From a virus (Duplodnaviria > Caudoviricetes), in the IMG/VR virus record IMGVR_UViG_3300042389_000329, positions 575 through 64,574 of that record: a stretch of DNA of 64,000 bases, one strand, 5' to 3'. This document shows positions 4,802 to 30,515 of the stretch, in pieces. Within the stretch, counting starts at the first letter, position 1. Each line of letters starts with the position of its first letter. The position numbers and the translations under genes were made by a program. Under the pieces are notes generated by a model. The model was given only the letters and a program-made list of their open reading frames with translations. It ran no database searches and was not told where the DNA came from.

Positions 4802-7800
4802 TTACCTGATACTGCTTTCCTTCTGGATGGTAATGTCCATTTCTTTAGCAAAGTCTTCGCTTAGAATAGCACCATAGGTGAGAGCACTTTTAAGAATAGG
4901 AGCAGCTTTCATAGCGTATTTTACAGGCTTAGCATCTTTCACAACCTCCTCGTAAGATTTAGTGGGGTCTGAAAGGTCAAGACCCGTGGTCTCTAACCAG
5001 AAGTGCGTAGCAAATTTGAGCTGGTCATTCACTAATCCAATAGCTGGGAACATATTACCGCTAAGAATTTTTTCAAACTCAAGAGGATTATAGAAGAAAG
5101 ATAGCTCACTTACAAACTTGTCCACAATCCTTTGGGAGAAGCGGAAGAAGTTCTTGGTTGCTCTATCCTCATCATCATCAGGTGCCATAAACTTCAGGGC
5201 TAGTGCAGCTCCAAGTAAGGCCCCTAAAAGCTGAAGCTCTCTAATCTGGTTCCTAAGACTATCCCTCATCATATCCATAAAGTCTTCTCTGGACATGGTG
5301 AATCTCTCGCCTGTTCTTGTTTTGTACTTTTTGGCATACTCTAGATAGAGCTCATCTAGTGCATTTATACCTCTATCAGTAGCATTTATAATATCAGATA
5401 GGGTGGTAGCTTTGTCTCTGAAGGATTTCATCCAAACATAAGCCAATGCTCTCATCCTACCAATCTCATATCTTTGACCTTCTGCTATACCATCCTCATT
5501 AATAGTCACTGTGAAGTCATCTGTTACACGTTTAAGTTCAGTGAAACGTGTAGCAAAAAGCTTTGGAATCCATCCCTTGAACACCATGGCTGCTCTTAAC
5601 CAAGCATTCATTTGAGCCTGACTTACGTTCCCATCAGATGTACCACCCATTGCGTTTCTTGAAGTGGTCCTAGCAAGATTTGTTAACTTTTGAATTTCTT
5701 CTCTATTACTTAAATCTAGTCCAGGGATTTCAAGTTTACCATCTACAATCTTTTTAGTGGCCCAGATAGATTGAGTCTTCTTCATCTCTTCAATCTCCTT
5801 GTTAATCAAGGGGTCCATCTCAGCAAACTTAGATCCAGAATTGTATCTGTCCTTATATTTGTTTCTTACAAATGCAGGGATGTTTACTATTTTACCATTC
5901 TTGACAAAACTGTTTTCAAGAAGTGTAAGGAAAACAGACTTCTCCATCATCATCTCAGGATAACTCATTGTTATCATGAGTGTGTCTCCAACATTAACAT
6001 TAGTGAGCTTACTCATCCCAGCCTTCTTATACAACTCACGAGAGGGGTCATCTTTCAAAGGCATGAAAAGATTTATCATTTCTACAAACGCTGTCTTCTC
6101 ATCGTTGTTTTCAAACTCAAGAGAGGCTATCTTTCTAAAGTTCTTCTTATACTCAGGAAACTTGAAATAGAAACCTGATTGAGCAGCAAGCTGACGCGTA
6201 CCACCAAAAAGGTTCACAAGTCCTGGTATCATTTCAAATCCTAATGTTTTAATTTGAAACCCTCTGTTAGCAGCATCCATTGTTTCCAATAGTGATATGG
6301 CAGTGGGATTCTCATCAATGGTGTACACAGTTCTACCAGCCACTTTGTTGATAGCATTCTTTATAAAGTTCTTTACATTTCCTATAGGAATTGCTGTATC
6401 TGTAGCTGATGTAACATTTTTTTGACCATAAAACAATACCTTCATATAGTTTTCAAAGAGCTTGGCATTCTCTTTATTTCCTTTCTCTTCAATAGGCTCA
6501 CCATTATCATCAAGGATTACATTTCCAAGATTGTCTGTAGCGTAGTGATTTTTAAACTCCTCAATAGTTTTTACTAGTTTAACCTGACCCTCCGCTTCAG
6601 TTAAGTACTTATAATTATATACGTGTTGTACATACAGGATAAGGTTCTTAAATATATCTTCACTTACATCAGAATAGTCATTAACACCATCTTCACCACG
6701 CGTGAAGTCATAGGTATAGTATTTAGGAACAGCATTCTTCATTTCTCCAGTGATCTGGTCAATAGCTCCACGTCCTATAGCATCAGGTCTGATAATAAGG
6801 TTGTCTCCAAATCTGCTGATTGCAGAAAGAACATTCTCCCATGCTAGCCCCTCAGCCATAGTTTTCCTTACAAAGGGAAGGAATGTCTTGGTTACATTGT
6901 TTTCAATATAACCCACCTCTGTAGCTATTTCATTAAAGTCACTAATAAAGTTGTACAGTTCAAGAAGATCAGGATCTTTACTTATCTCTTTATATTCTTC
7001 AGAGTACCATTTTGGAAGAGGATACCTCTTAACTAAATAGTTATCACCCCCGTTAAAGTCTATTCTAGTGATGTCATATTGACGATACACTTGTTCAATG
7101 TACTTCTTTCTCTGAGCCTCCACCTCCTTCTTATCTCCAGGCAGGCTCTCTTTTTTAATCTGGTCTATCCTCATTTTGATAACCTTCTTTGCTTCAGCCA
7201 TGTAGGCATCCACATCAATGTTGTCAAGCAACCATCTTCTATCTCCTCCTTGTAAGTGTTTGTTATCAACCTCTTTGCGAAAGTCACCGCTAAACTTAAA
7301 CACTAGCTTATTTACCTTTTTATCCTTATCATCCTTTTGATAAATCCTATTAATGGATTCTTTAGGATCGCCTCCTTTCTTCATAATCCTTTCACGAATA
7401 TCCATTATCTGCTTCACCTTAGCAAGTGCGTCCTGAGCAGCATTTCCTAAAGCAGCCCTGTTAACTTTATAAAGAATTTCTAAAGAAGGAAGAGGAATTT
7501 CAGATATACCCTGGAAGAAAGAACCCATACCTTTAACCACTCGCTTGGGATCTAAAAGCCCTGTGGTGGTATTTCTTTGTCCGATATGTTTGTCAGCAAA
7601 AGCCATCGTTGCTTTCTTTATGGCCTTTGATGAACGATAGATAGCACTAGACTCATCAGCTAATTTCTTAGCAAGCTGTTTCCTTTCTTTAATTTCTTCC
7701 TTCTGAGCTTTAGTTTTTGCAGATGCTTCCATCTCCTCAGAATAGATAAGCTCTCCTATATCATTACTCACTCCAGCAAAGATTGAGGCAAGCTCCATAT

Positions 7801-9937
7801 AGTTACGTGCGTCATCTGAAAAGTCAGATAGAGCCCTGTTATCTTTATCTCTTGAGGTGGCAGGCATGTCTTTATAAATGGTTTCGTACTCATTTAATAT
7901 CCTGTCACCTTCTCTTCTCATCACCTCGATGGTATCAATAAGAGGAGAGATGTTACTAGTTGCTTGTATTATACGGATGGTTTGTCTAAGAATATTTAAA
8001 CGTTCTCTTTTAAACTCTCTTTCTTCTTCCGTAACAGTTTCTTCTGATATTCTATCTAATAGAGCATATAGTTTAGAAATCAATATGTCTAGCTCTTCCT
8101 CTCCTGTAGACTCTGTTTTCTCAGGAACAGGAGTGAGACGAAGATCCTCAATTTGAGAGGGGTCTGCAGAACCTGCAACAATACCACCTAGTTTAAATCC
8201 TAAATCAGGATTGAACTTGTTCTTTAATTTGAACTCCATTAGGAAAGGAATGGCTCTTGTCATTCCAAAGTCTTTCACACCATATACATCTTTTAGAATT
8301 TGCTTATATCTTCCAAGCTGTATATTATATGCTTCTTGTTTGTACCAAGCCACATCTGTTCTTTCCTTATTAATGTACATAAACTTCCAGTCCAGAATGT
8401 GCACCTTTCCTGAAGGTTCTATTGCCATAAAGTCCAACGTTCCAGCTTCATCCTCAGCAGGATCATAGATTACTTGTTCAGATAGAATCAATGTATCTTT
8501 TGGAAACATTTTAATGAGGTCCATGTAATACTTCTCCAGCTTATCATAAACCGCATCCATTGTACTATCATTAATTACAGGACGCTTATCAGCTTTGTTT
8601 TTCTTCATCCCGTTAGGTTCGTAGAACCTACCGTGTATGTCTTGAAGCAGTGCGTGCGAGTCAACACCTATCTCTCTTTTTAGCTCATTGAACTTCTTCT
8701 CTTCTTCTGTAAAGGTTTTGTTTCTAAACTTTTCAGCATACCAATCTTTTACACGGTCAGTCACCCTGTTTGCAGCACGTCTAATAGCTCCGTTTGGAAG
8801 AATAACATCGTACCAATTAGAAGCCTCTTCTGTGTCTTGAAGAATAGGATCAACCTTCTCACCACTCTCAGTCTTAATAATTGTATCGCGTGTGATAGCA
8901 AGCTTGTCCATCAAACTTTCCTGAGGATCAGTTACCTTCTGAAGGAAGACATCTCTAGTTTGGATGTTTGTAACATCCCCAGATATGTCCCCTTTTGCAA
9001 TGCTCTCAGCTGCTCTTTCAAATATGTCAACGTTAGAAGACTTAAACCATCCTCTAATCTTGTCCATCACTCTATTCCAAGTGTTCCTCACCCAAGACCT
9101 ATTGGTCTCCTCTCTAAGTTCTGGAAACTCTGTGTCCCCATCATTATCTTTAATGATTAACTCAGTGATCAACTTGTCAACAGCCTCCTTCTTTATCTTA
9201 CGAATGTTAGGCTTGCCATTAGGAAGTTGGTAGCGTTTGTCGTTTTTATATGCGTCTAGTGTTTTTTGGTAAATCTTGAACCTATCAATCTTGGAAATCA
9301 TCTCTGTCATCATTCTAGGTTCCACCTGTTCTATAATTGCTGTAGTAATGTGCACCATCTCTTCAACAAGAGCTCTATCTTCTTTACCTTCAGCTATGGC
9401 AACAATACCATGGATAAGGTCAGCCAGTCCATTTATAGAAGTGACATCATAGTTTTGCTCCTTAGCATATTTGCTAAGTGATTGAAAATCAATACCTATC
9501 TTCTTACCAGCTTCCAGCACTCTTTTGATTGTCTCTTCAGATGCTCTAGAAGAAGGTAGTCCCTCAAGCTGATTATAGATATCAATAGGAGACTCTCCTT
9601 TGTAGAGTTCATCTATCTGTCTTTGGAAGTATAAACCAATAGGTTCCCTACTCTCATAAATACCAAGCTCTTTTCTTTTGTCGTCTATTTGTTTAAATGC
9701 TTCTGGATTACCCACAACATACCACTCATCCCCCATCTTTTCTTTTGTAAACAAGGGTAGTTTTACATTGTAGTTAAAGGATGCATCTGCATTCATCTTG
9801 TTCACCACCTCATCAAACTTTCCCATGGTGGATACAATTCTTCTAATCCCATCAACATCAGGAATCACTCCCTCGTTAATAAGTGTTTGTCTAGCATTTA
9901 ATGATGCTTCCTTGTGTTTTAAGATGTTGCAATTCAT
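4802..9937 (-). CDS. Large ejected cargo protein: degenerate zincin + PD-(D/E)xK nuclease + helical C-terminal region (1711 aa)
   Basis: VEEMVH (degenerate HExxH). RecB/Cas4-like motifs IGVDSH...SEQVIYD..AGTLD...ILDWK...YNIQLGRY. Hydrophobic helix LQLLGALLGAALAL. Lies after the RNAP. Confidence 0.75.
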   Translation of the reverse strand: MNCNILKHKEASLNARQTLINEGVIPDVDGIRRIVSTMGKFDEVVNKMNADASFNYNVKLPLFTKEKMGDEWYVVGNPEAFKQIDDKRKELGIYESREPIGLYFQRQIDELYKGESPIDIYNQLEGLPSSRASEETIKRVLEAGKKIGIDFQSLSKYAKEQNYDVTSINGLADLIHGIVAIAEGKEDRALVEEMVHITTAIIEQVEPRMMTEMISKIDRFKIYQKTLDAYKNDKRYQLPNGKPNIRKIKKEAVDKLITELIIKDNDGDTEFPELREETNRSWVRNTWNRVMDKIRGWFKSSNVDIFERAAESIAKGDISGDVTNIQTRDVFLQKVTDPQESLMDKLAITRDTIIKTESGEKVDPILQDTEEASNWYDVILPNGAIRRAANRVTDRVKDWYAEKFRNKTFTEEEKKFNELKREIGVDSHALLQDIHGRFYEPNGMKKNKADKRPVINDSTMDAVYDKLEKYYMDLIKMFPKDTLILSEQVIYDPAEDEAGTLDFMAIEPSGKVHILDWKFMYINKERTDVAWYKQEAYNIQLGRYKQILKDVYGVKDFGMTRAIPFLMEFKLKNKFNPDLGFKLGGIVAGSADPSQIEDLRLTPVPEKTESTGEEELDILISKLYALLDRISEETVTEEEREFKRERLNILRQTIRIIQATSNISPLIDTIEVMRREGDRILNEYETIYKDMPATSRDKDNRALSDFSDDARNYMELASIFAGVSNDIGELIYSEEMEASAKTKAQKEEIKERKQLAKKLADESSAIYRSSKAIKKATMAFADKHIGQRNTTTGLLDPKRVVKGMGSFFQGISEIPLPSLEILYKVNRAALGNAAQDALAKVKQIMDIRERIMKKGGDPKESINRIYQKDDKDKKVNKLVFKFSGDFRKEVDNKHLQGGDRRWLLDNIDVDAYMAEAKKVIKMRIDQIKKESLPGDKKEVEAQRKKYIEQVYRQYDITRIDFNGGDNYLVKRYPLPKWYSEEYKEISKDPDLLELYNFISDFNEIATEVGYIENNVTKTFLPFVRKTMAEGLAWENVLSAISRFGDNLIIRPDAIGRGAIDQITGEMKNAVPKYYTYDFTRGEDGVNDYSDVSEDIFKNLILYVQHVYNYKYLTEAEGQVKLVKTIEEFKNHYATDNLGNVILDDNGEPIEEKGNKENAKLFENYMKVLFYGQKNVTSATDTAIPIGNVKNFIKNAINKVAGRTVYTIDENPTAISLLETMDAANRGFQIKTLGFEMIPGLVNLFGGTRQLAAQSGFYFKFPEYKKNFRKIASLEFENNDEKTAFVEMINLFMPLKDDPSRELYKKAGMSKLTNVNVGDTLMITMSYPEMMMEKSVFLTLLENSFVKNGKIVNIPAFVRNKYKDRYNSGSKFAEMDPLINKEIEEMKKTQSIWATKKIVDGKLEIPGLDLSNREEIQKLTNLARTTSRNAMGGTSDGNVSQAQMNAWLRAAMVFKGWIPKLFATRFTELKRVTDDFTVTINEDGIAEGQRYEIGRMRALAYVWMKSFRDKATTLSDIINATDRGINALDELYLEYAKKYKTRTGERFTMSREDFMDMMRDSLRNQIRELQLLGALLGAALALKFMAPDDDEDRATKNFFRFSQRIVDKFVSELSFFYNPLEFEKILSGNMFPAIGLVNDQLKFATHFWLETTGLDLSDPTKSYEEVVKDAKPVKYAMKAAPILKSALTYGAILSEDFAKEMDITIQKESSIR

Positions 9938-9941
9938 AATG

Positions 9942-11519
9942 TTAGAATGCTACCCCTCCTTCACAGGGGCTTTTATATTCGGTTCTTTCTAATAATTCAG
10001 GCTCCTCTTCAATGGTTTCCTCAAAAGCATTTAGATCATTCTTCTCATAGTTAATGTGTCTAAATCCTTCGTAGTTAAAGTTGAAGGCATCCTGGGACTT
10101 TACAAAGGCTGTGAAGGCTTTCCAATCGATAAAGTCCTTATCTCTTCCCATCTTAAGCTTTGCAATCATTATCTCTTTCCAGAGCTTAAAGTAGTTTTCA
10201 TGTTCATCCTGACCTGGTTGCAACCTTATGAAGAAGTCTATTACATACCCTGTATCTGGAATAAGGTCGCCTGCTTTGTGAGATACAAGAATGGTTTTCT
10301 TCTTCTTAACAGGTCTACCGTCCTCTTTTACATAATAGGATACTTCCTTTTCATGTGTACCATTTTCTAGATAGAAGTCTCCATCTATTACTGCTTGAGC
10401 AGTGAGAGATTCACGGTTACCATCCCTGTCATAGAAACTGTTAATGAGTCTCATGGATGGATACTTTTGTTTAAACTTCTTATACCATCCAAACTGAGGA
10501 ATAAACTCTTTTGCCATCTCTGCAGAGGCAGCTAAATCAGGACCTACAGCATTCTCAATCTTCTTATAAACGTTTATATTGTCCCCAATAAAGTTGATAT
10601 CATAAGGAACCACCCAGTCTATATCATGAAGGGTTTCGTCTGCAGTTCTATAAATTGGACCAGCTTTACGTAGGGCTAGGCTACCTGTCAAGATTAAACC
10701 ATTATTCTGTCCAAACTCCACAATGTCTTTAGCAAAAGGATCAGAGTCAATGGTGTTCTCATAATACTTCTGTATCTGTCCTTCTGACAACTCGTATTTA
10801 AAATACTCGTAGTTTCTGTTCAGGATTTCATCAGCAATAGAGAGCCCCAAGTCGTTTAGCTTTTCAGCTCTCTTCTTATTTTTATTTGAGAAGCTAGACA
10901 GCAGTTCTTCTATAAAGGCAACAAACTTCTCCCACAGATTCATGTTATCTTTGAAGTCTTTACCTACCCACTTAGTGTCCATTTCCTTTCTGAACTGAGT
11001 TGGGTTGATATAGTATTTCTCGATGTTCTCTTTTAGGAAGTCTAGGATGACAAGGTCTCGTATCTTGTTCTTCCACTTTTTAGCATCTCTGATGTACCCT
11101 ACTCTATCTTTAATAACATCTCTGTGGTGAGCAAATCTTTCATCAAACTTCTCCCAATTGTATATGAAGTATCTGAGGTTGGACTTAATCTTATTGTTTT
11201 GTTTACCAAGCATTTGGTAAGCAAAGTAGGCTACCTCAGGGGTGATGATGTGACCCTTTTCATATGCAATTGCCTTAGCCACCAAGTCAGATGCAGTGTA
11301 AGCATCTATACCTATTTCTTCTTTTAGATCGTTATACTCTGTGGCCGTGATTCCAAAATCCTTTAGAAAGCCATCAACCAGTTGGTCGTTGAGGGACTTC
11401 ATGAATCTATCAGGAACATTACCAGCATACTTATCCCATAGGTAATAGGCAATCTTTTCACCCTGTGCTTCCACAAGGTTTTTCCAAGACTGTAAATTCT
11501 TATTTGGACAAGTTGGCAT
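9942..11519 (-). CDS. Cargo-locus protein with Pol-beta superfamily nucleotidyltransferase domain (525 aa)
   Basis: LILTGSLAL...HDIDWVV signature (hGS..DxD), third Asp in VIDFF, and C-terminal AKLKMGRDKDFID. Confidence 0.7.
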   Translation of the reverse strand: MPTCPNKNLQSWKNLVEAQGEKIAYYLWDKYAGNVPDRFMKSLNDQLVDGFLKDFGITATEYNDLKEEIGIDAYTASDLVAKAIAYEKGHIITPEVAYFAYQMLGKQNNKIKSNLRYFIYNWEKFDERFAHHRDVIKDRVGYIRDAKKWKNKIRDLVILDFLKENIEKYYINPTQFRKEMDTKWVGKDFKDNMNLWEKFVAFIEELLSSFSNKNKKRAEKLNDLGLSIADEILNRNYEYFKYELSEGQIQKYYENTIDSDPFAKDIVEFGQNNGLILTGSLALRKAGPIYRTADETLHDIDWVVPYDINFIGDNINVYKKIENAVGPDLAASAEMAKEFIPQFGWYKKFKQKYPSMRLINSFYDRDGNRESLTAQAVIDGDFYLENGTHEKEVSYYVKEDGRPVKKKKTILVSHKAGDLIPDTGYVIDFFIRLQPGQDEHENYFKLWKEIMIAKLKMGRDKDFIDWKAFTAFVKSQDAFNFNYEGFRHINYEKNDLNAFEETIEEEPELLERTEYKSPCEGGVAF

Positions 11520-11522
11520 ATC

Positions 11523-14500
11523 TTAACAAAGTTTAGTTAGTATTTCTCCAATTTGAGCTCGCGTATATCCAAGTCTTTCCAGGAAGTCTGCTGTAATCTG
11601 ATCCTTCAGATAGTAGTTACCATCCTTGAGTTGAACAGTGAGCTCATCTATTTCCATGGTGGGGAAGTCTTGTACAATTCTTTCCTTGAAGCTTTCTAAG
11701 GCTGGGCTGTTTACAAAGTAGGGAATAATCTTTTCAGGAGCTACCTCTTTCACTTTGATGAACCCATTATCTATCTTTGACTTTCTAGCGTTAGCATAGA
11801 ATTCGTTAGCTCTGAAACTATCTCCCCACGCGTTAATTGCTTGATAGACAAAGTTTTCATACACCTTACCTTTAGATTCTGTGGGATGAATGAGAGGATT
11901 ACCATAAGCATCTCTCACCTTCTTAAACAGACCCTTGTTCATAAAGGAGAAGTCACCTCTTCTCTTCATAGCCCTTCTATCAGCTAAGGGTATACTCTCA
12001 TCTTCCCAAGAGTACACTATAAAATCAGATGTCCCTTCTCTACTTAATACAGGCATTGTCATCACTTGAGGAATCTGACCAGTTTTCACTGCTCTTGATA
12101 CATCCTTGGGAAGGAAGTTAATGTTAGTGTTGTAGAACCAATTGCCATCTTTTGACTGGAAAAGCTTTGCCTTTGAATGGGGGATGATGTCATCATTGTT
12201 CCAATTGTTTCTCTCAAACACGTTGAGTTTGTAAAACAGGTCTAAGTTAGGAACATTTTCTAGATTAGACAACACTGGGTTGTAGATTCTTTTGAAATCA
12301 TCATATGGCAACAGTGATGTGAAGCTGATTGGAGAGTTAGATAGTCCACTCTGTAACACTGCTACAGTGACAATTTTATTAAACAGCTCCTCATTACCTA
12401 TTCCTGCCAGGTGACTCTTAAGTTTCTTGAAGTCATAGATGATTTGATTCTGATCATAAAGCTTACCATCCCTACCCTTCATCTTAAGGTTGTCCACACC
12501 GTTCACTCTATCAGATAACACAGGCTGCAATGCTTTGATAACCAGATTGTTATACAAAGGATGGTTTTCATCTGCCTTAATTTTTTGCAGAAAGTCATCT
12601 ATCTGCCTAACGTAGTTATCATCTGCTAACAGTGCTTTTTCAATATAGGTGTTCAGGCGAACGTTAGACTTTGTTGTAAAGTCATTCTGTACTGCCCAGT
12701 CAAACAAGTCAGCCACCACCTTTTGTGCCACCTTTACAAATTCCCTGTCAGATAGATTCACGTAGGGCAGCAGCACCTTTTGAACAATGTTTCTCACCTT
12801 TGGCTTGTCAGACATGAACACCTCAGCATACGCATTCCTCAATCTTCCTATGTTGATTCTCAATCTCTTAAGGAAGGAGTTATCAAGAACCTTATCTACT
12901 GAAGAAATGATAGTTTCCCTAGCATTGATAAGTTGCATTTCCTTCTTAAACACCAACAATGGATCATTGAAGTTGGAGGTGTCATAGTTTGTACCCTGTG
13001 TAACACGGAACAGGTGTTCGCCCATCTTAGCATATTTCAGGAACTCATCTAAAATGAAGTGCTGTTCTGCTCTTTCATTTGCATCAAACTCCTGTTTACC
13101 AAGGTTTTCTTCTAGCTTGCTTTCAATAGGAATAGCAGTTACGCGTTCAGCTTTATTCTCATCCACCTTATACTTGCTGCTATTCTTCACTTGGTTCACG
13201 AACTTACCATTGAACACCCATGTATAGCCTTCATTTTCAAGGGTTCGTAGATAGTCACGGATGATTGGTTGGTTCATGAAGAACACAACAGAGTCAATAG
13301 GCACCCCTATCTTAGTTAAGAATAGGTAGGTGCTAGCCACATTTGGAGTGGCTCCCATTTGCATAATCCACGGACCCTTGGCAATATCCACATATCCGTC
13401 AATAAACTGACCTATAATATCGGAGATGAACTGACCAGCCTTGTTCTTAATCATGGAAAGGGTAACCACTTCTCTATCACCAATCTTGACAGTGTTAAAG
13501 TTGTTTGTACCATCCTCCTTAAAGAACTTAATCTTGCCATCCTTTAGCCAGCTCCTATCAGTCAAACTAACTGCTTCCAGCTTTTCATCATCTATGAAGA
13601 CATTAGAACGTTGATTCAAAGAGTGGTTAGTCTGGTTAACAGCAGCAATACCAATTGCATATTTACCTGTTACGAATGCATGTCTAAGGTTTGACATGAA
13701 CACTCTATCCAGCATATTATCCACTTGTGTATAGTCAAACTTGGTTAGGCCCAGCTTATCTACAATCTTCTTAGATAAATCCTTTAACTGATCAGCAGAG
13801 TTGGGTTTTACCAGACTCTCAAAGTTCAGCTCGTTTGTTACTAGCTTCTCTAGGGAGTCAATGTAAGCGTTCTCTAATAGCTTCTTATAACTAAATCTGC
13901 TATACTTTTTGTTTAGCTCATAAGGGTCCATACCCTTAGCTTCCAACAGAAACTCGTCAATTGAAGGAACATATTTCAGTTTCAGATCATTAACCAAGCT
14001 TTCTGTAAGGTCTTCTACGCCTAGAACAGACTCTAACAAATCCTGAGCAGCAGTTTCAATAGCTGCTTCTTTTTCGATTTCCTTCATCTTCTTGTATCTG
14101 CCAAGAAGATTATTCTCATAGAAATCTCTAAGTTGACTCTCGCTGTTTGTATTGATAAGCTCTAGCTTCATCAATTTTGGAACCTGATTTCTATCTATGT
14201 AGATGTTTTTCAGGTACATAGAGAGCTTATCTATATCAAAGTCAGATCCCACTTTCTTAACCAGAGCTGAGGGTACAAAAACGTTATCCCCAAACTCCTG
14301 TGGTAGGAAGTCTTTAATTACAAAAACATCGATTGAATTCTGTTTCTGAGTGGGAATACGATAGGCAATACCTCTAAGTATCTCCTGTCCCTCTTTAGTT
14401 TGGTTCAGTGCTTTCAGAAGCTCCTTGTCAGACAAGTCGCTTTTGAACCATCTAGCTACGTATAGCTCACATACACGTTCACCTTTTTCATTTACGTAGA

Positions 14501-17500
14501 ACTTCAATTCATCAGATGCGTAAACGGTTTTATCTCCAACCTGTTTAGCTTCAGCACGTTTAGATTCAAGGAGTGTAACAGGGAGCTGTACCTTTTGGCC
14601 ACCACTGATTTTCTGAGAGATAACATTCTTGTCAGCAATTGAATAGAGAATGTTTCTAATTAACTGATAGGCAGGAGTGGCTTCAAGAACAACCTCCTTA
14701 GACTTTAGTCCTCTGAGTGCACTCAGTACATTGTCATTAACCTCTCTGTTAAGTACTTCTCTTTCAAGCACTTCTACAGTTTTATCAATGTTGTCTAGTG
14801 TATAAGAATATGCACCGTTAGAGAAGGTTTCCTTAATACCAAACTTATCAAGAAGCTGTTCATATCCCTCCTCAATTAGTCTTATCAGAAGATCTTCGTT
14901 TCTCTTAATCTCTTTGTATAGATTGTTGCCACCATTATAAGACTCTTTGTCTTCTAAAGCCACCCAGTTATTATAACGTGTCTCAAAGTCTTCATCTGGT
15001 TGAAAGTCAACAGGCATTCCAGCTTCCATCATATCAAGCGTTACTAGCTTTGTTACCTGGCTACCCCTAGTCACTATCTCATCTTCTTTAGAAGGCACCT
15101 CAGCTTGTACACTCATGATGGCAAATGGAACATTCAATACACCTTGTTCTAGCGACGGGTTATCTATCTCCTGCTGTGTCTCAAAGGGTACACTATTAAA
15201 GTTACCATTGCTGTCATAGATATCAAATACCTTTTCAGCCCCCACCTTTCTACCGCTCTCAAACACAGCATAGTCTACATCTTCTTTCTGCATTTTGTTA
15301 TAAAGCTTGACAGCATTGGAGTTAGGTTTAAACTCCTTCATCATGCGATAGGACAGGGGATAGAGGGCAAACTTATCCAGTAGTACGTCATTGAACGATC
15401 TACCGTTTCCTTTATTTCCAGCTACAATAGGCTTTAGTGTAGTGTAGGCACTCTTGACACGAGGGTTTCCTTTCTCTAAAATCTTCACCTCATTTGCACT
15501 GAGCTTAAGTTTCTTATCTCTCTTCTCCCAAGCTATGTCATATCTGTATTGGCTTTCCTCTCTCTTGTTCCAGTTGTTTGAACGAATCCTGAAGTTACGA
15601 TAGGCCTTGAACATAATAATTCCACCACCATCTGCTTCTTCATAAGGATCATCATATAAAGGTAACTCATTAGTAGAGAACACTTTACCAAGAGTGATTG
15701 ACCTAAAGAAGTCTTGACCAAAGTCAGTTCTTCCAATATCATCAACATCATATCCTTTATTGTAAACATCATTTAGTATGGAGTTTATTTTCTTAGATCC
15801 ATACATAATAGCTTGACGTGGGGACAGGAAGTTCTTAATACGCTTAAGTTCATCTGCATATTGATAAGGATCAGAGTATAGAATCTTGTGAAGCTCTATG
15901 TTATTAATCATGTAATTAATAGTCAGAGCATCCAGTCTTCTTTTTAACATCTCATCCTTTGTAGGTCTGTCTGTTGGGAAGTCTAGATTGTCTAATATCC
16001 ATCCCTCAGATGTAGCCTCAATAATGTTGTAAGTAGATAGAGTTTCCTTAAGCTTCTCAGATTGTTTGTTAATAAAGCTGTCAAGAGCTTCAACTATTTG
16101 ATTCTCATACTTTTTGTAAAGCTGGTCAGAAGTTAATTGACTGTTTTCTTTATTAAGCGTTTTGTTTTTTGTTTGGCTTGTTATTTCATCGTGCAGTTCT
16201 TTTCCTAATATAGGCTTAAAGAAACGAAGATCCTTTTTGTTTCTTCCTTTAACATCAGCAATGTGACGGTCTTTTTCTCTGGACAGATCTACTTCAGATG
16301 TAAAGTATCCTTCAAAAATACTGTGCACTCTGCTTCTTCCATACAACAACATGTCTTCAGTGATGGCATTACCCATCTTCATCATGTGCTCCAAAGAGGC
16401 ATCTCCAGGAACCAGGTTTAGGTAGTAGCCTGCAAGGTTCATGTTAATCTCTTGGATGAAACGTTCTCTATAGTTAAGTCTGGAAGACTCTTTACTTTTA
16501 CCTCTAGAGGTGTCAATTGTACTATCTGCTATAGACACCTTCATATACTCCTGAGCATCAGCCTTTCGTTTACCTGTGTTCAGGTCAAACATCCTATTGA
16601 TAATCACAGAGTTCTGAGCAAATGAGTCTGTGATTAAGTATGCATATTGAGGATATTTTTTAGGTATATCGTAAAAATTGTCCACTTGTGTCAGGGCATC
16701 ATACAGATCACTGGCAGCATTAGTTCCAATGTAGGTTTGTTTTCTTTCTCCAGAGCCACCAATATATGTGCTGTCAAACTCTGGGTTCTCAATAGCAGAC
16801 TTGATTTCTCCAAGCTCCATTAGACGACCATCAATATTTAAGGTTTTACTATTAATAGATGAAACCCTGTCAGCTTTCTTTAAACTGGTTTTCAAGCCAC
16901 CAACAGCATCTCTAAAGATTTCTTGTTTCTCTTTAGATAACTTTTTGATATCAGCCAGTTTAAACTTAATCCCCAGTGATCTCAGGAACTTTACCCTATC
17001 CTCCATGTTGTTCAGTTCCACTCTGTTGATAGCACCCTTGGTAGCAATGTAAGCTTGCTTTGCCTTATCTTCTTTGAAGTAGGGATTCTTTCCTCTAAGC
17101 ACCTTTACCATATCATTCAAGAGCTCCTGCTTAGCTTGTCTAGCAGCTGTAGCAAGATTAGCATCTCCTATCTGAACCTCTCCATTATCACGGATGTAAT
17201 GGTTCTTTACGTCAGGATTTTGTTTCTTAAAGGTGGTCCACAGAGCTGTTAACAAGTCTGCATCATGTGTCTCTTTAAGATTGGACAAATCAATACCAGG
17301 AGTGGTAAAGTTCCTTCTTGTAAGGCGTGTATATATTGTACGATAATTAGGATCACCTTTTGCCATCTGCTTGATTCTGTTCAACATGTCTTCAATGTTG
17401 GCAGAATCATGGGTTTGGTTCATGATTTTAATGAACACTTCAATGGTAGGCAGTAACGTATGTCCTCCAATAGAAGAGGGAATATACTCCGTACTAAGTG

Positions 17501-20500
17501 TGGATCTGCCATTAGGAGATACAGTTTGCTTTTCTTTCACCAAAGGAACAGTGGAAAGGATGAGCTTTATTGCAGCGTTAGCTTTCTTAAAATGGTCAAT
17601 TTTATCTGCTGAATCATATTCTCCTTTTCCAGTATTTTCATCTGCTGTAAGATTAATGACGTCATTTTCATCAAACTCAATAGAATACTTTCTGAGATAT
17701 TCCTCATGTTTATTAACCAGCTGACTCCAAGTGACATCATTCATAATGGACTTTCTCATACTGAGAGACTTAGCCATTTCTCTCTTAGCCTGATTGAGCT
17801 CACCTTTTGTTGTATACTTACCAAGGGTGATGTTGTCCAGATTAGCTTTATAAAGCTTTGTAACTGTGCGTCTTATCTGTACCCTCAACTCTTCATAAAG
17901 CTCTTGTCTGTCCAGGTTTGGAACCTCAAATAGACTCTTGTTTGTTTTAATGAGCTTTCCAAGAGTTTGGTAGGTCATTTCCTGCATGATGTCATTCACC
18001 TCTTGACCTGTAAAATTAGCTATGTCAAGCGCTGCACCATCATCCACCATAGCCTCTTCAATATCAATTATTCCCATCTTGGCATAAGAGAGGGAAGTGT
18101 GATAGGGTGAGTAGGTGTTATAGTAGCCTGTATTAATCTTTTCAAACAGATTAGCAGTGTTCACTGCTGCTTTCTCTCCTGTAAAAAACTCCTTAATAAA
18201 GTTAACAAGATCAGCAAAAAGTCTTTGTATAAAGTTTTTACCTTGTGTAGGTCTGGCAGGAATTTTACCTTTCTGTACATAATCCCTGAACTCTTCAGCC
18301 AATGCTTCTTCTAATTGTCTTTCAGTGGCTGTAGCGTAGGAAACATCTTCTCCAAGTTTTCTGTCATAGAAGGTGCCCTTTCTAGATCTAAGTTCATTTA
18401 TAATAGCCTGACGCTCCTCAGGATCAGAAAACATCCTCCAGACAGCATGGAACACTTCATGGTACACTGTGCCCACCTCAGCATTTCCATAGATGTATAT
18501 TGCACCATCTTTGAACATACCCCAGGCTTGAACACCGTTAGTAGACTGTAAAACATTCTTAACACGATATACAGGAATGTTAGAGAAATACTTAGAAAGC
18601 CATGCTTCAGCTTTCTTCCAGTTCTCTCCTTCAAACTTTTTCACCTGCTCCTCAATGATTAAACGGAAAGGAACATCATCATCCATGCTATCAATGTCAT
18701 CTTTCAAATCATCATCATCTTCTATATTGAAGTCTCCAAAAGTGTCGTCACCATTTTCCTCTTCTGTTTCCTCTTCTATTTCTATTTCTTCTTCTTCCTC
18801 TTCCTCTTTCTTTGCTTTTGGTTTAACACCAAAGAGTGAGCTAGCTACATCTTCACTCATTTCATCTGTATCATCTTCTATAACAGTCTCTGTATCAGAG
18901 CTAATGTCTTTCTTAGCAACGAGTTCTCCTTTAATAGCGTTAAAGATGTTACCTCTAAATTGAGCCAGAGTTTCCTCTTTGGTCATCCCTTTACTAATCA
19001 ACTCCTCTTGAATAGTTTGAGCATCACCCACTCCAAAAGCTGTCTTAATACCATTCTTTACATCCTTCTTAAGGATGAGCTCTCTGTTAGCAACAAAGTA
19101 GATTTTTCTACCCTTGGGATACTTTTCACTAGGAGCAGTGGTAAAGATGTTAAGTGTTTCTCCATCTAGGATAAATTTACCAGGAGGAGCCACTCTATAT
19201 TGTTTCTCTTTTTTCTCTCCTTTTTCTTCCTTCTCTCCAAGTTTACCAGGCTTTATTTTCTTTTTCTTGGTAGTGGAAGTTTTCTCATACTTGAACTTAT
19301 CCTGACCATGGTCTACAATAAAGTAGATGCCCTTTCTATTTACATCATCAGTGTCCCTAAGGGGTCTCATTTGAGTGTACAGGGGAAGTTCCTTGGAGTT
19401 TCTAGCTTCTCCATCCAGTTGACCAGATGCTCCAGGCAGTCTGTTGGAAAGTAGATAGGACTGGTAATTTGGCCACTCTCTAGTGGTCATCTCCCCTTGT
19501 GGGCTAATTGACAGCACCTCAGTGAATGGTTGACTCCATTTAGTGTCAACTAGTTTAGAGTTGATGTTATTGTATAACCCCTCTAACAAACTTATAATCT
19601 CATCCTTCTTAGCCCTAACTGCTGTTGGGGTGAATGGGATGTTATAATCTTTTGCACCAATGTTTAGAGTGAATCTTTTAAATGGTCCTTCTACATCTTC
19701 TTCTAAAAAGAATACACTGTTCTGACCTCTAGGCTTATTGTCTTTAGGTACACCCCAATAGACAATAGATCTTAGATAACTTAGCATACGCTGAGCATCA
19801 TCAGAGTCTATACCATCCTCATTCTCATGAACTGCTGTTACTAAACGCTCAATAGCTTGGTAAACTGTAGCAGCCTCTTGTTTAGTAAGAAGACGATTCT
19901 TTAGTTTGACATAACCGTTCTTTAGAATAAGAAACGGTTTACCTAATGGTTTAGAGAAAGACACAGAACCATTGTCCAGTGCTCCTTCAGATGTAGGAAT
20001 TTCTACAACAGCCCTATTAACTAGATCTTCGTTAGTGATAAGCCCTGCATCTTGTACAGATGTAACAGCGTCTTCTGTAGGAACAAAGTTATTCTTTTCA
20101 TCTAGCTCACCAACCACCTCAGGAATACCAAACGACGCATCAATACTGTATGTATCTGTGGATGGGTTATTTAATGTTTGTGTTCTCCACTCATCATACT
20201 GCTTGGTGAGTTCTTCCACCACTTCAGTTGGAGTGTCCTTTCTGAACATAGAGTCGTTGTTTGACCACTTAAGTTCAGCATTAGGAAATACTTGGAATAT
20301 AGCAGCGTTTAAATCTTTAGAGGCTAAGGGTTTACCATCAATACCCACTAAGCGTTTTACTGACTCATCGTCAGGATCTATCTCTACAATAACCAGTGCA
20401 ATTGTTTCCTTAGGATCGATGTCTGCAGTTTGGTCACCTTTGTCTTTTAAGAACTGTGTTAAGCCAGGAAGTATGCCACCTTCATTTTTAGAAGTGACAA

Positions 20501-23500
20501 TGATACCACGCAGATTTTCTCTGTTAGGCATCTTGTCCATGTTAGCTGCAAACCTGTTAGCTCTTACGTGATGGTCTGCTAATGGTCCTCCTGCAAACTT
20601 CTCACTAGGAGCAGTGGTTCCTGTCACTACATACAGATCAGGTTTCTTAGGATCGGGTTCATAGTCATACTCGTACATTTCTGTTTGAACCCCATCATCT
20701 GCTGTCTTTAAGAAACGCTTTATAAGTTTTTGATTACGAGCAATTTGTTCTTCTTCAGCCACTCTTTTTCTGTACTCTTCAGCAGTCTTTTCTAATGCTT
20801 GTAATGCTTCTAGTTTAGGTTCTCTTTCGCTTAGGATTTTCTCCAACCCTTCTTGAATATCCTTTATGTCAGCCTCAAGCTTCTCAGCTCTTTTGGTCAT
20901 ATCAGGAATCTTCAACTCTTCAGCAAACTCACTAATCTGGTCCTCCAGTTCCATGACAGTTTCTGTCAACCCAAGCTTCTCCTGTATATAGTTTTTAGCT
21001 CCCTGCTCACCAAGATAGGGCTCTATTCTATTCTGAAGATCTTCTAGATATAAAGGAAGATTTGGATTCTCTTCTCTTAGACGTGTAATATAATCATTGA
21101 GAAGAGACATAGCTGTTTGGATGGCACTATCTATACTCTCAAGTAGCTTGTATCCACTATCGAGGGACTCAACACTGGTTTTAATAACCTCACCAGTATC
21201 ATTAATCATAGCCTTTAAATCCTTGATAGCTTCATCAAAGGTGTCAGGTAGATTTTCTCTCTGGTCGTATAAGCTCTTTAGATAGTCTCTGGTTTGCTCA
21301 AGCTCATCTCTTTCCTCTTCTAATTTCTTGATAGCATCCTCTGTACCAATATATGTTCTTCTCAGGTTCTCTAATACTTTCCTCTGAGCTTTAGATATTT
21401 GTTTTTTGGGCTCACCCTTTTTAGTAGTGGTTATCTTCTTAATCTCTTCATCAGCTTTCTGTAAAGTGGCTTTAGCATCTTCAAGCTTTTTATCCACTTC
21501 CTCCCTAGCAGCAGTAACTTTTTGAACTGCTTCAGCCAGGATAGCATCTCTTTCAGCGTATAAAGATGAGAGTTCATCCTCTCCCACCTTTGCAGTTAAT
21601 GCTTCTTTGGCTCGGTCAGATAGCTCTTCTTCAGAATAAATCTTAGCCACCTCATACCCTTCCTTAACCACAAACATGTCTCTTGTTACATTATACTTCT
21701 TCTTACCGTCTAACGTAACAAATACAAGCTTGCCTGTCTTACCCTCATATCGTACATTTCCCTGTACAGTTTTCCCCCTACCTAATTGATAGGTGAATAC
21801 ATTACCAGCCACCTCAGTGTAAAACTTGGCATTAGGTTTGTTTTCAACAGCACTGATTTCTTCAATGTCTTGTCCATCAAAGAAATCTTTCTTCACTGTA
21901 AATATCTCACCATCTTCTTTAGGATCACGACTGCTCACCTGAAGGACCAATTTACCATCAGGACTTTCACCAAGAACAATGAAACGAGAGAACATCTCAT
22001 GCTTCACTCCCTTCTTGGTTCTTTTTACAGGTACACCGATGTAGTATTCCTTTCCTGTTTCAAATTTGATTTCTCCTTTCTGAGTGTCAACAGTTACAGC
22101 ACCTTTATCTTTGGTTCCTTCTGGAGCTTTAGCAGGTCCAGTTTTATACTTAGTTGGGTTTAACTTTATGTCGTTATACTCATCGATGAATGCTTTCTTA
22201 CGCATTGCCATCTCAGTCAAATCCTTAGCATTTGTCTTGAGATCTTCTCTCTCATCGTCAGTTAGTCCAGGCTTGGTGTTTATTTGTTCAGCTAAATCTT
22301 TAATAGCTTCTTCACTAGGTTTACCATCAGTTCCTACAGATTCTAAGATTTCACTAGTGTTTACACCTGAGAGACCAAGTGTTTGATTTACATCGCTTAT
22401 ACGTTGGTCGTAGTTAGCTATCTTAGAACCAGCATATACCATCTTGCTGATTACATCATCTGTGTATGTACGTTCTCCATTAGGTCCTACTACACCCCCA
22501 TACTTAATTTTAAGGTCACCATCTAACTTAGCAGCTACATTTGCATGTGCCTGCAGGTTATCAAGTCTCTTAATAAAAGATGGCTGAGTGTCAGTGGGTG
22601 CAGCATATCCCTCCTGTTGGAGTTTAAGAAACCCTCCATCACTTAACGCCTGGTTCCTCAGGTCATTTATTTCATAATCAACAGCTTCTTTAGCTCTATA
22701 CTTTAGACGAGTTTCAATAAAGGTGTGAGCATAGTCAAACTCTAAGTCCTTGGCTTCCAATATATCACCTCTTCTAATAGCAGCTTCTCTTTCCTCTTGG
22801 ATGATTTCAGCAGCCTTTAGATTAGAATAGGCGCTCTTCATCTTATCCTTAATCAAAGAGTTGTTTAATGCTGTAACAGCTTCATCTCTCAGTTTACCCT
22901 GTTCTCCACCAAAACCAAATATACCTCTTTCTCCAATCTTACCAGTTTTACCAAATACAGGAAGACCACCCTTAACACCTACAAAACCAGCAGATTGTAA
23001 TGCTCCTGCAAATCCACCAGTGAATACATTTAATAATCCCTCATCAGTAGTGAGAGCCTCGTTCAGACCAAATAGTATAGCATCATCTGTAATTGAGGGC
23101 TTTTCACCTTTTGCTTTTTTAGAGAAATAGTTTTGCGTACCTGTTTGAATAGCATACTGAGCACCCTCTTCAAAAGCCTCAGCAGTGTTAAATAATAAGG
23201 ATGCAGCTTTACCCGCTCCATACAGACGCTTCCCAAACCCTTTTTCTGGAAGAGTGGACACATACTTACCCTCTTTAAAAGCCACCTTATTTAAGATGTC
23301 CTTATCACTTTTGAAAGAAGAAGAAAATATTCTGGGTAGTTGGATATAGTTTGTTGCAGTGAGGAGAGCACTATTACCTAGATAGCTCCAGTTTCCTACA
23401 CTTTCTGCAAGTCTGTTAATCTCTTGTAAATCAGCAGGTGTGGGATCATACCCACGAGTTCTCTTGAAATTATCAATCATCTGCTGTCTGAAGTCTTGGG

Positions 23501-27118: not shown

Positions 27119-27133
27119 GGCATATCAAGTTAG

Positions 27134-27164
27134 CAAATGTAATATGAATAATTAGATTTTCCAA
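27134..27164 (-). promoter_or_regulatory. Bacteroidota-type promoter (TTG-N20-TACATTTG) for the cargo/RNAP operon
   Basis: Exact TAnnTTTG at 27134-27141 on the minus strand, with TTG 20 nt upstream. Confidence 0.65.
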
Positions 27165-27205
27165 GAGGTATAACGAATTCTGGTAATTCGCTATAACTGA
27201 GTTAG

Positions 27206-30200
27206 TTAGAGATTTTTAAAAGCTTTTACAACTGAACTATTTATACCCTTTTTCTTGCTTACCTTTTTACCATCTTTACCAGACGTACGATACATTTCTT
27301 TTATCTCATCAGGGGTAAGCATTCTATTTTCCATGTCTGGAAATAAATCTTCCATATATGAAGGAAGGGTAGTCTGAGATGTAGGTTGTGGAGGAGCAAC
27401 AGGCACCTGTCTATTAATTGGAGCTGTATTTTGACTTACAGGAGGTATAGGTGTGCCCATTCTATCTACAGGAGTTAAATCTTGATCTCCCGTGTACATC
27501 GTAGGCATCTGAGGTTGGAAAGGTGCGTTGACATTAAATGTTCTGAAACGAGGATCAAAACGGAAACCGTATAGATTTTGTGCAGTAGCTAATGTTCTGT
27601 TTTCCAATTGGTTACGCATAAATTTATCACCAATAGACTTCAGAGCTTCTATATTAGTTCCTTTTGTAATAGATTTAGCCTTCTCTTGTCTTTCGTATTG
27701 TCTGTCCAGAATAGCTAGATTTTGTAAACCGAACTGGTTTAGAAGATTTCTGTTTTGCTCATACACACGTTGCTTTTCAGCCTGGTTCAATCTAAACTGC
27801 TCACCTAGCACTTTTTGGTTAGCCTGGTATTTCTGAGCGTTTAACATAGATTGAGCAGCAGGATTGTATCCCAACATTCTTTGCTGTGATCTGAAGGTAG
27901 CCTCATTCTCATTTAATATATCCTGTAGAGATATATCATAAGGTGTGGATAATTGAGGCTGCATGGTTTGAGCCTGTACAGGTTCTAACTGATTGGTAGC
28001 CAATGCGTACATCTCTCCAATCAACTGTCTTGGATCAAGGTCCTCCTGATCTGGACGTACAACATATGGAAGTGCTGCTCCTATAGCATCAAGTATTTGA
28101 GACCTTTTGTAATTTGACGTCACATCAAATGACTTCCTAAGACCTGTAGGTGGAACATAAGTTTCCATTGAAGGCAGTACTGGAACAAGTTCATCCTTTG
28201 TAGAAGTAGTGGGTGTAGTTTTAGCAGCATCTGTTGAGTATAAAGACGCAGCGCTTGCAGTTTGTCTACCAAAGTCACCATCCACTCTCAAACGAGTGGG
28301 AACACCTAGTTTCTCAGCTTCTCTATTAAACGCCATTTGGAAATCTTCAACATCACTCTCACTAGAAGGATCAAAGTCTTCCCAATTGTACCAAGGATTT
28401 CTAGCCTTCATTGCCTCAAAATCTGCTTGAGTTACACCTCCATAGAATACATCACCTTTTGTCTGTCCCTTAGGTACAGTGGGAAGAGCCTTTATTGTCT
28501 TCAGTTTCTTACCATCTTGAGCTGTTTCTTTGAATGCCTCTTTGTCCACCTTCACCTTACCTCTAGCCAAATCATCAGCAACCAATCCCATTTCTTCAGC
28601 TGTATCATTGATGGCATTCTGCAAGGATGCAGCAGTCATCTTCTTATCTGCAAGTTCTTTGAGTTTTTGATTAGCTCCTAACATAGTGTATTGCAAAGAG
28701 TTAAGTGTCATTTTATCTATAGGACTGCTCACCTCAAAGTCTTCTAACATCTGCGTTGCTTTATCAAGCTTTTTGTTCTGCTTGTTCTCTTTCTTAGATA
28801 GATCAGCTACATAGGTTTTGAACTTCTTACCCTTAGCCTCTTCTCCAAGCATTGGAATATAAGACTTAGGTATCTTGAGATTACCAAACACTACAAGGTT
28901 AGAATCACCACTTGTGCCATCTTGTAGCTTTACAGCAGGTTCACCTCTTTCTACCTCTACAGGGTTCTCACCATAGGTGATACCAATACCAGTGTTTCCT
29001 CTTCCATCAGACTCATCGTGGGATTGACCTCTGAACATGATAGTTTCACCACCATCTGGTAGATAGGGATTCTGAGACATTGTTTCTGCATATCCACCCC
29101 AGTGTGTCTGGAGCTCTCCACCCATTTGCATAGCTGGTCTTTCTGTAGACATAGCTCGTGCACTAGGAGGAGTGTAGGCTTTTAGGTGACCACCAGCTCT
29201 AAGCATATCTGCATCATGAGGAGGCTTAAGAAGGTCTTTTACATTGTGCCCTCCAAAGGATACAATCTTCTGTGGTTGCCATGTATGACTTACCCATTTG
29301 TATGGAGATGTCATTCCACCATCTTCCATGTTAGCACCAAACTGTTGCTGAACACCTATTCCAAAGTTTTGTCCTATGATTTTATTTATATTTTGTCTAG
29401 ACAGGTCTTGTTGATTTTCAATTTTATCTTCTTGCAGTTTGTCAATAGCAGATCCTATAAATGTAGCCGCAGTACCAATAGGTCCACCAAATAAACCACC
29501 AACACTACCAAGCACCTGACTATAACCACTTGTTTGACCTCCTCCAACAATATTAGCAAGTTGTTGGCCTTGTGAACTTCCCAAAGCATCCATAAATGCT
29601 CCACCACCAGCAGCTTTGTGCATCTTACCACCATGATAGAATTGCTTGTAGCGTTCACTATCATTCAATGGTTCATATCCAAGGTTGTCATAAAGTGTAC
29701 CAGGAGCATAGGTGTTAGCAATTTCTCCACCCCCTACAGAAGCTCCAAATTCAGCAAGCACATTTGTACCTACGCCATAAGAAGGAAACATTTGTTCTGG
29801 TTGAAATGCCATATCTTCTGGTCTAAGATATTGTCTTCTAGGCTGTTGTACAGGTCTGCTAGCAGCAGCATCACCCATTACATTTGTTAGAGCAGTTTGT
29901 TGTTGTGCTTCCTTATACCTTCTTTTTTGGTCCTTGATGTTTTGAATACCACCAATCACCTGACCCAGAACAGGAATACCTTTTGCAAGATCAGGTTTCT
30001 TTTTTGTTGATGCTGCTGGCATAGCTGGAGGATTGTAATTTGTTCCCCAGTTAAACTGTTGTTGCTGAAGGTTTTGTGTACTAGGGGTGAGCTGAGGACC
30101 AGTAGGACCTAGTCCAGGAATCTCATTTCCTACCTGAGATTTTGCAACTTTCTTTCCTTTCTTAGCACCAGCCATTTCTGCAAACTGTGCCATTTGACTC

Positions 30201-30514: not shown

Positions 30515-30515
30515 A

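Follow-up and report, generated by a model that had tools for sequence, protein, structure and literature searches.

In the present study, we analysed a 64,000-nucleotide stretch of the virus record IMGVR_UViG_3300042389_000329 (hereafter, the window), which covers bases 575-64574 of the 64,574-base record (completeness about 56%) and makes up the greater part of a 64.6-kb fragment from a crAss-like (Crassvirales-type) phage. Three consecutive genes of the window encode cargo proteins of 4277, 525 and 1711 amino acids (aa), which are nearly free of cysteine (Cys) and carry single Cys residues near the ends that face one another. Our analysis suggested that these three proteins are probably one split "polyprotein", joined head-to-tail in the particle by disulfides between the facing Cys residues. 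In relatives, the facing Cys residues occurred together at most of the junctions surveyed and varied with the splitting and fusion of the genes, and a head-to-tail disulfide between such residues has been observed in another phage, A4. The features in question, with the virion RNA polymerase (RNAP) forming part of the largest protein, are as follows:

11523..24356 (-): 4277-aa cargo protein, fusion of a gp47-like part and the virion RNAP; Cys at residues 3296 and 4277 (the last residue) only
11526..11639 (-): last 38 residues of the RNAP protein, a conserved C-terminal module that ends with the Cys4277 codon at 11526-11528
9942..11519 (-): 525-aa middle link; Cys4 (11508-11510) and Cys519 (9963-9965) only
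11412..11519 (-): first 36 residues of the link, a conserved N-terminal module (M..CPNKN...W..L)
10101..10754 (-): residues 256-473 of the link, a domain of probable nucleotidyltransferase fold
4802..9937 (-): 1711-aa protein, last in the proposed chain; Cys3 (9929-9931) only; ends ...IQKESSIR
24359..34457 (-): three upstream cargo-like proteins (919, 1102 and 1313 aa); zero Cys; outside the proposed chain

Cysteine distribution in the cargo proteins

The initial annotation had claimed that the few Cys residues of these proteins sit at gene junctions, and each residue and coordinate that it gave was correct on the minus strand. The 4277-, 525- and 1711-aa proteins comprise 6513 aa with 5 Cys, four of which lie at the four facing termini. 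The 4277-aa open reading frame (ORF) ends ...LTKLC, with TGT at 11526-11528, and its other Cys is residue 3296 in ...GERV[C]ELYV.... As had also been claimed, the 525-aa protein has only Cys4 and Cys519, the 1711-aa protein has only Cys3, and the ORFs of 919, 1102 and 1313 aa have zero Cys. External virion proteins were indeed Cys-rich: the 1761-aa protein had 40 Cys, and Cys made up 8.4% of a 166-aa protein.

Across the six cargo ORFs, Cys made up 5 of 9847 aa (0.051%), compared with 140 of 9109 aa (1.54%) in the 20 other ORFs tallied; at the latter rate, the binomial probability of five or fewer Cys in the cargo was 4e-58. Terminal zones were defined as the first 8 and the last 10 residues of each of the three chain proteins. 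In post-hoc tests, the probability that at least four of the five Cys residues fall in these zones was 2.3e-8, and that for the four facing zones alone was 4.6e-9. The comparative data described below give the same pattern independently. The internal Cys3296 (codon 14467-14469, minus strand) lies in the motif L.FY...G.R.[C]E...WF, inside the part of the protein that is alignable with the RNAPs of phi14:2 and crAssphage. This motif was semi-conserved, and its Cys was kept in about a dozen relatives and lacking in others.

Facing cysteines at the junctions of relatives

The initial annotation had proposed counting Cys at adjacent termini in Crassvirales-like genomes, with unconserved or unpaired terminal Cys as the outcome that would speak against its reading. 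We carried out this count on 81 loci (77 from two scans of viral contigs and four reference records) plus the window, using a script that took consecutive plus-strand ORFs of at least 400 aa, each with at most 3 Cys or at most 0.3% Cys. The opposite of the adverse outcome was found. The survey yielded 99 junctions between Cys-poor ORFs, of which 79 were distinct and were distributed as follows:

Both facing Cys present: 60 of 79
Neither facing Cys present: 14 of 79
C-terminal Cys only: 3 of 79
N-terminal Cys only: 2 of 79

The co-occurrence of the facing Cys residues gave a Fisher p of 6e-11 over the 79 distinct junctions, uncorrected for kinship. Four of the five mismatched junctions dissolved upon inspection. 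The mismatch at L021 was a start-codon artefact, in which the Cys at residue 4 is counted from the next ATG; L037 supplied two mismatches, caused by an unrelated 573-aa gene without terminal Cys that stands between the true partners; and the Cys at L069 lies 17 residues from the end, beyond the 10-residue zone. The fifth, in crAssphage, is considered below. The loci L004 and L005 appeared fragmented, with in-frame TGA at 5865, 6294 and 10424; when these were read through, the ORF after ...KQICQ started with MPVTC. In-frame TGA or TAG inside giant genes was also observed in L001 (cr114_1) and L081, which suggests stop-codon recoding in some relatives, and the true gene start of L004 (MPVTC...) was located with the help of the facing-Cys rule.

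At the junctions, Cys was encoded by TGT (103) and TGC (17), the stop codons were TAA (52), TGA (5) and TAG (3), the gaps between genes with both facing Cys ranged from -4 to +130 nucleotides (nt), and the offsets of the Cys residues from the termini varied among relatives. Because both Cys codons, all three stop codons and varied gaps are used, the selection acts on protein rather than on DNA. The pairing was also observed between genes that are not adjacent, namely crAss001 gp47/gp50 and the L037 partners. These comparisons indicated that the facing Cys pairs are under selection.

Judged from their sequences, the reference phages phi14:2, crAss001 and crAssphage obey the same rule. In phi14:2, g067 has Cys1797 of 1797 residues, g066 has Cys3 and Cys2179 of 2180, and g065 has Cys3. 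In crAss001, gp47 has Cys2339 of 2341, gp50 has Cys5, Cys1334 and Cys2404 of 2412, and gp49 has Cys5; gp47 and gp50 are encoded on opposite strands, and their facing Cys residues are still paired. In crAssphage, gp45 has Cys1956 of 1957 and gp44 has Cys3. The crAss001 proteins gp45-47, gp49 and gp50 were found in virions by mass spectrometry, according to the main text of Bayfield 2023 (PMC10172136), and the virion location of the phi14:2 cargo proteins is given by annotation. By analogy, we propose that the chain proteins of the window are packed in the particle, as mass spectrometry has shown only for crAss001. The same main text contains the word "cysteine" 0 times, and its 7 mentions of "disulfide" concern the tail hubs, the rings and gp57, the sites of the disulfides described in the crAss001 virion (PMC10172136). 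In the searchable literature, we found no statement on terminal or paired Cys in crassvirus cargo; supplements could hold one.

Covariation with gene fission and fusion

Near-length homologs of the 525-aa link carried the two Cys residues in 43 of 47 cases, the first at residues 3-6 and the second among the last 7 residues. The remaining four were short (291-376 aa, on contigs of 1.2-5.9 kb) and had one of the two Cys each, and a third Cys was found in only two of the 47 homologs. Among 92 longer homologs, the pieces of 920-1468 aa had Cys at both ends, and the forms of about 2000-2500 aa, in which link and body are fused, had the N-terminal Cys only. We then considered a tree of the first 480 residues of 110 link homologs with an intact N-terminus, in which 1500 aa or more defined the long form. 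A C-terminal Cys was present in 48 of 50 separate pieces and in 0 of 60 long (fused) forms. The state changed between piece and long form at least 15 times on the tree, 8 of these changes being forced by well-supported (starred) branches. In about 7 of 8 phylogenetically independent pairs, the C-terminal Cys accompanied the split, and in 0 it opposed it (sign test, median p = 0.016).

The nearest relative of the window, P0048 (76% identity), is fused and has Cys4 only. The split point in the window lies in an acidic, variable linker after the conserved link domain. The link domain aligns with P0048 up to this linker, nothing in P0048 corresponds to the first 90 residues of the 1711-aa protein, and the exact change behind the split was untraceable by alignment to P0048. 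In L026, the halves ...IKCS and MACK... are parted by a GIY-YIG homing endonuclease gene (12094-12879, plus strand; Pfam E = 1.9e-11), which suggests one way in which splits arise; the split site of L026 differs from that of the window.

In 113 homologs of the 1711-aa protein, a C-terminal Cys was found in none (0/113) and an N-terminal Cys in 106; exactly that one Cys was present in 100, and the total was 117 Cys in 206,883 aa. A C-terminal tail of the type ...[IV]Q[KR]E..[IV]R (IQKESSIR in the window; 4802-4830, minus strand) was common to many of these homologs, and could possibly be an end-of-chain or packaging signal.

Identity of the RNAP fusion and of the link

In BLASTP searches, the 4277-aa protein matched phi14:2 g066 (E = 3e-21), crAss001 gp50 (E = 3e-21) and crAss001 gp47 (E = 7e-22). 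Residues 2640-3705 align to g066, the catalytic RNAP of phi14:2, and to gp50, which upheld the earlier label of RNAP, and residues 98-734 and 1904-2091 align to gp47. Since it aligns to both gp47 and RNAP, the protein is a fusion of two proteins that are separate in cultured crassviruses, and zero Cys was found between its gp47-like and RNAP parts. A tblastn search with this giant protein found 75 records; all of those among the matches listed were crass-type. No match to any of the six cargo proteins of the window was obtained for phi14:2 g067 and g065, crAss001 gp49 or crAssphage gp45 by BLASTP at E ≤ 0.01.

The structure of the link was predicted with AlphaFold2 on 25 homologs, with a mean predicted local distance difference test (pLDDT) score of 69.6 and the highest confidence at residues 250-470. 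In VIA-align, residues 256-473 matched LnuA (4wh5; Z 8.0, root-mean-square deviation 3.1, 127 residues aligned), ANT(2'') (Z 7.4) and MenT1 (Z 7.0), all Z values being in the middling range of the tool. A Foldseek search of the 525-aa model against the PDB gave zero matches at E ≤ 0.001, and the weak rows were mostly Pol-beta-family enzymes; Pfam did not find a nucleotidyltransferase in the link. The residues G279, S280, H298, D299 and D301 were invariant in 25 link sequences. We take G-[GS] ... D-x-D to be the signature of the Pol-beta-superfamily nucleotidyltransferases, and the link homologs carry such residues. The modelling thus pointed to a probable nucleotidyltransferase fold at residues 256-473, and the link, if it is a nucleotidyltransferase, would be an injected enzyme.

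Several homologs of the 1711-aa protein (P0153, P0160, P0192, P0163 and P0225) contain varied enzymes in the first approximately 300 residues, followed by a conserved body of approximately 1500 aa. Their head modules include ART-PolyVal, Kinase-PolyVal, MuF_C, GNAT and histidine phosphatase; all five (5/5) have enzyme domains, having been chosen for their precomputed Pfam hits. The 1711-aa protein of the window itself had zero Pfam matches. Because different enzymes occupy this one N-terminal position in the homologs, the block that follows the RNAP resembles a polyvalent effector protein with a swappable head. From these sequences, the N-terminal head appears to be swappable and, in the window, to be a separate polypeptide with a Cys at each end.

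Terminal modules and the proposed chain

The RNAP protein ends in a C-terminal module of about 38 residues, TVQLKDG...LGY..QIGEILTKLC, and the preceding 160 residues were variable and unalignable. The sole invariant column in 25 aligned RNAP C-termini was the last Cys. The N-terminal module of the link (about 36 residues) was 62-72% identical even where the remainder of the protein was unalignable. At the second junction, between the 525- and 1711-aa proteins, the Cys was the only conserved feature. Co-folding of the terminal pairs had been proposed in the initial annotation and was run for the RNAP-link pair, using the last 70 aa of the RNAP protein and residues 1-240 of the link. Of 80 solved complexes, 58 reached the mark, as did 2 of 110 mismatched pairs. 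The pair scored 0.40, compared with 0.01 for the best of 3 controls, which lent the idea weak support, since at 0.60 or under the mark was reached by only 7 of the 80 solved complexes and by both passing mismatches. The contact agreement of the runs was at least 95%, and the pLDDT of the partner was at least 66. We propose that the RNAP C-terminal module and the link N-terminal module are docking partners.

A precedent for the chemistry exists in cyanopodophage A4. In its cryo-electron microscopy structure, the C-terminal helix of gp27 is inserted into gp26 and a Cys1715-Cys5 disulfide joins the two, according to the text of the report (PNAS 2025, PMC12002296). In the A-4L record, gp27 (1717 aa) and gp26 (1114 aa) hold one Cys each, Cys1715 and Cys5. 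The claim of the initial annotation that facing Cys residues pair neighbouring cargo, with a middle gene needing both, was strongly supported by the comparative data, and its disulfide chemistry is argued from the analogy with A4 and from the presence of other disulfides in crAss001 virions.

The split polyprotein would consist of the 4277-aa gp47-like/RNAP fusion, the 525-aa link of probable nucleotidyltransferase fold and the 1711-aa terminal protein. Internal Cys residues would have been purged as in other ejected phage proteins, and one near-terminal Cys would have been kept per facing end. The short terminal modules would serve to dock each protein by its C-terminus to the N-terminus of its successor, as the weak co-fold result may suggest, and the two thiols would form an intermolecular disulfide inside the particle, as in phage A4. 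The three separately translated proteins would then act as one head-to-tail thread of approximately 6500 residues, which, having no internal cross-links, could still be unfolded and extruded through the tail. Finally, the host cytoplasm would reduce the links and free the RNAP and the effector-like proteins. We infer ordered threading through the tail and reductive release in this way. Because a single end-to-end bond keeps the chain linear, the arrangement would be compatible with the partial unfolding and extrusion proposed for the crAss001 cargo in the text of PMC10172136.

Evidence against the proposed disulfide-linked chain

Several observations weigh against this reading. A disulfide or a physical contact between these proteins has been observed in no crassvirus. 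The cytoplasm in which phages assemble is reducing, and the habitats of many crassviruses are anoxic, which leaves the timing and the occurrence of bond formation in doubt. BLASTP of A4 gp27 and gp26 against the six cargo proteins of the window gave nothing at E ≤ 0.01, and the A4 precedent is therefore treated as an analogy rather than a homology. The co-fold pass was only weak and is reported without contacts, and the sequences give no support for docking at the junction of the 525- and 1711-aa proteins. There are also exceptions to the Cys pattern. The C-terminal Cys was lacking in the pieces P0090 and P0107 (2/50) and the N-terminal Cys in 7 of the 113 homologs of the 1711-aa protein; some of these exceptions may be truncated gene calls. 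The crAssphage protein gp44 has 7 internal Cys, and crAssphage gp47 has Cys856 of 857 beside a neighbour, gp46, with zero Cys, which is a real, unexplained exception. In addition, the cargo is unresolved in the crAss001 reconstruction, as described in the main text of PMC10172136.

Alternative explanations

The alternative that survives best, although we consider it unlikely, is that each terminal Cys acts on its own, in a homodimer bond or as an anchor to the portal, the capsid interior or the muzzle, and that no chain exists. About 6 copies of each RNAP-associated protein are thought to be packed in crAss001, and other virion proteins of this phage use disulfides, including a gp57 homodimer, according to the main text of PMC10172136; the C-terminal Cys of crAssphage gp47, followed by a protein without Cys, would also fit. 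This explanation, however, accounts neither for the restriction of Cys to the facing ends, with the first N-terminus and the last C-terminus (0/113) never bearing one, nor for the joint appearance of both Cys at splits and their joint disappearance on fusion.

Still less likely, in our estimation, is a pairing of the proteins through a shared metal ion or other thiol chemistry instead of a disulfide. Such a pairing, which the initial annotation had named as an alternative in the form of shared metal sites, fits the same comparative data and would function in the reducing cytoplasm before lysis. However, each terminus has a single Cys, and neither the two alignments nor the junction list contained an accompanying conserved His or second Cys; with one Cys per terminus, additional chains or ligands of another kind would be required to complete a metal site. 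The sole solved analogue, A4, has a disulfide.

An origin of the Cys codons as a by-product of a nucleotide signal at the junctions (translational coupling, promoter or terminator), to which the tight packing (gaps of 3-4 nt in the window) and a GGAGG-like stretch in the last codons of the 525-aa gene could point, or by chance, is highly improbable: a DNA signal was rejected because the Cys residues pair on opposite strands (crAss001 gp47/gp50) and across intervening genes (L037 and L026), with both Cys codons, three stop codons, gaps of -4 to +130 nt and varied Cys offsets, and chance was rejected at a P of about 1e-8 in the window alone.

Gene neighbourhood of the cargo block

Every long ORF of the region is encoded on the minus strand. 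PHROG matches identified the portal (4.6e-103), the terminase (1.1e-87) and the major head protein (2.6e-31), and a tail ring protein matched Pfam CrAss_Ring_1 (E = 7.6e-12, 45.6 bits; cut-off 27), so that the ring protein, portal, major head protein and terminase were found in crass-type synteny. The gene order was a structural block, the Cys-rich 1761-aa virion protein, the six giant Cys-poor proteins (in order 1313, 1102, 919, 4277, 525 and 1711 aa) and a collagen-like tail-fibre gene. Facing Cys residues were absent from the junctions of the 919-, 1102- and 1313-aa proteins.

No PHROG family (0) was found for the 1711-, 525- and 4277-aa proteins, and Pfam gave only sub-threshold noise on these three (Astro_capsid_p2, 17.4 bits against a cut-off of 25; Frankia_peptide, 17.2 against 48). 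A transfer RNA scan of the window found 0 genes. Thioredoxin (PF00085) had 0 matches in the record of the window, a result of little weight because the record is only about 56% complete. In the crAssphage record (L035, BK010471.1), gp37 and gp39, near the RNAP block, are annotated as thioredoxin-like.

The 958-aa collagen-like protein (1451-4327, minus strand) has Cys at residues 62, 72, 77, 82 and 90, a Cys cluster at 910-939 and Cys as its last residue. In many loci (L002, L010, L012, L017, L018, L022, L023 and L027), the tail-fibre-like genes after the chain have a Cys triad at residues 5, 10 and 18. Inside the last codons of the 525-aa gene lies the stretch GAAGGAGGGG (9945-9962, minus strand), a candidate ribosome-binding site, and the ATG of the 1711-aa gene follows approximately 17 nt downstream.

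Implications

Crassviruses must package, and later eject, several megadaltons of protein, a giant RNAP among them. For this process the facing-Cys rule offers a concrete model that predicts the order of the proteins (gp47 to gp50 to gp49 in crAss001) and names residue pairs that can be tested in existing cultured phages. Annotators would gain a marker of chain membership and of true gene ends, also in stop-codon-recoded genomes such as L004. More tentatively, we suggest the possibility that a general "disulfide-stitched polyprotein" is in use both in crassviruses and, independently of them, in A4-like podophages. In it, cargo proteins docked by short terminal modules would be locked covalently by single facing Cys into a linear thread, free of cross-links, that carries the RNAP and swappable effectors. 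If so, stoichiometry and the order of ejection would be set by the thread, and its links would be undone by host reductants on arrival, a redox switch for the release of the polymerase and the effectors. Because a Cys pair could replace a peptide bond, genes could be freely split (for example by homing endonucleases, as in L026) and re-fused, which would explain why a single protein family shows at least 8 to 15 changes between the split and fused states.

Comparison with known systems

The closest cultured systems, phi14:2 g067-g066-g065 and crAss001 gp47-gp50-gp49, resemble the window in the RNAP core, the gp47-like region, the near absence of Cys and the facing Cys residues. In contrast to these phages, the window has its gp47-like and RNAP parts on a single polypeptide of 4277 aa, and the protein that follows the RNAP is divided between the 525-aa link and the 1711-aa body.

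Phage A4 gp27/gp26 are likewise consecutive, giant, separately translated proteins with near-terminal facing Cys residues and are otherwise (nearly) Cys-free. Such a head-to-tail disulfide has so far been seen in the virion of A4 only, and that of the window is a prediction. Unlike the window, A4 belongs to the Saffermanviridae and has a T7-like ejectosome, no RNAP and one link rather than two or more. In the text of the A4 paper, the bond is a structural detail and not a rule that covaries with gene fission (PMC12002296).

In the Schitoviridae, the ejection operon (N4 gp50, DEV gp71-73) has Cys frequencies orders of magnitude below the proteome (0.00075% in gp71 homologs), which the text of PMC11445570 explains by passage through the periplasm. 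The window resembles this system in its giant virion RNAP with putatively co-ejected proteins and in the Cys content of its cargo, far below that of the other proteins. Unlike the Schitoviridae proteins, which lack Cys altogether, the window cargo retains Cys at four termini and at one internal site.

Iyer et al. 2017 (PMC5512222) describe polyvalent proteins, which occur in phages and in conjugative elements. As in these proteins, the homologs of the 1711-aa protein carry modules named for, or typical of, the class; in contrast, the module of probable nucleotidyltransferase fold in the window would be encoded by a gene of its own, as a protein that bears Cys at both ends.

Short C- and N-terminal modules that join separately translated giants head-to-tail in a fixed order also recall the modular polyketide and non-ribosomal peptide synthases. 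In these synthases, docking domains order the subunits. Their contacts, unlike those proposed for the window, are non-covalent and serve catalysis rather than packaging or ejection, so that this is a functional analogy only. In summary, the suppression of Cys in ejected proteins was already known, as was a single head-to-tail disulfide seen in a virion; what is new is the proposed order-wide chain that includes the RNAP, together with the covariation of its facing Cys residues with gene fission and fusion.

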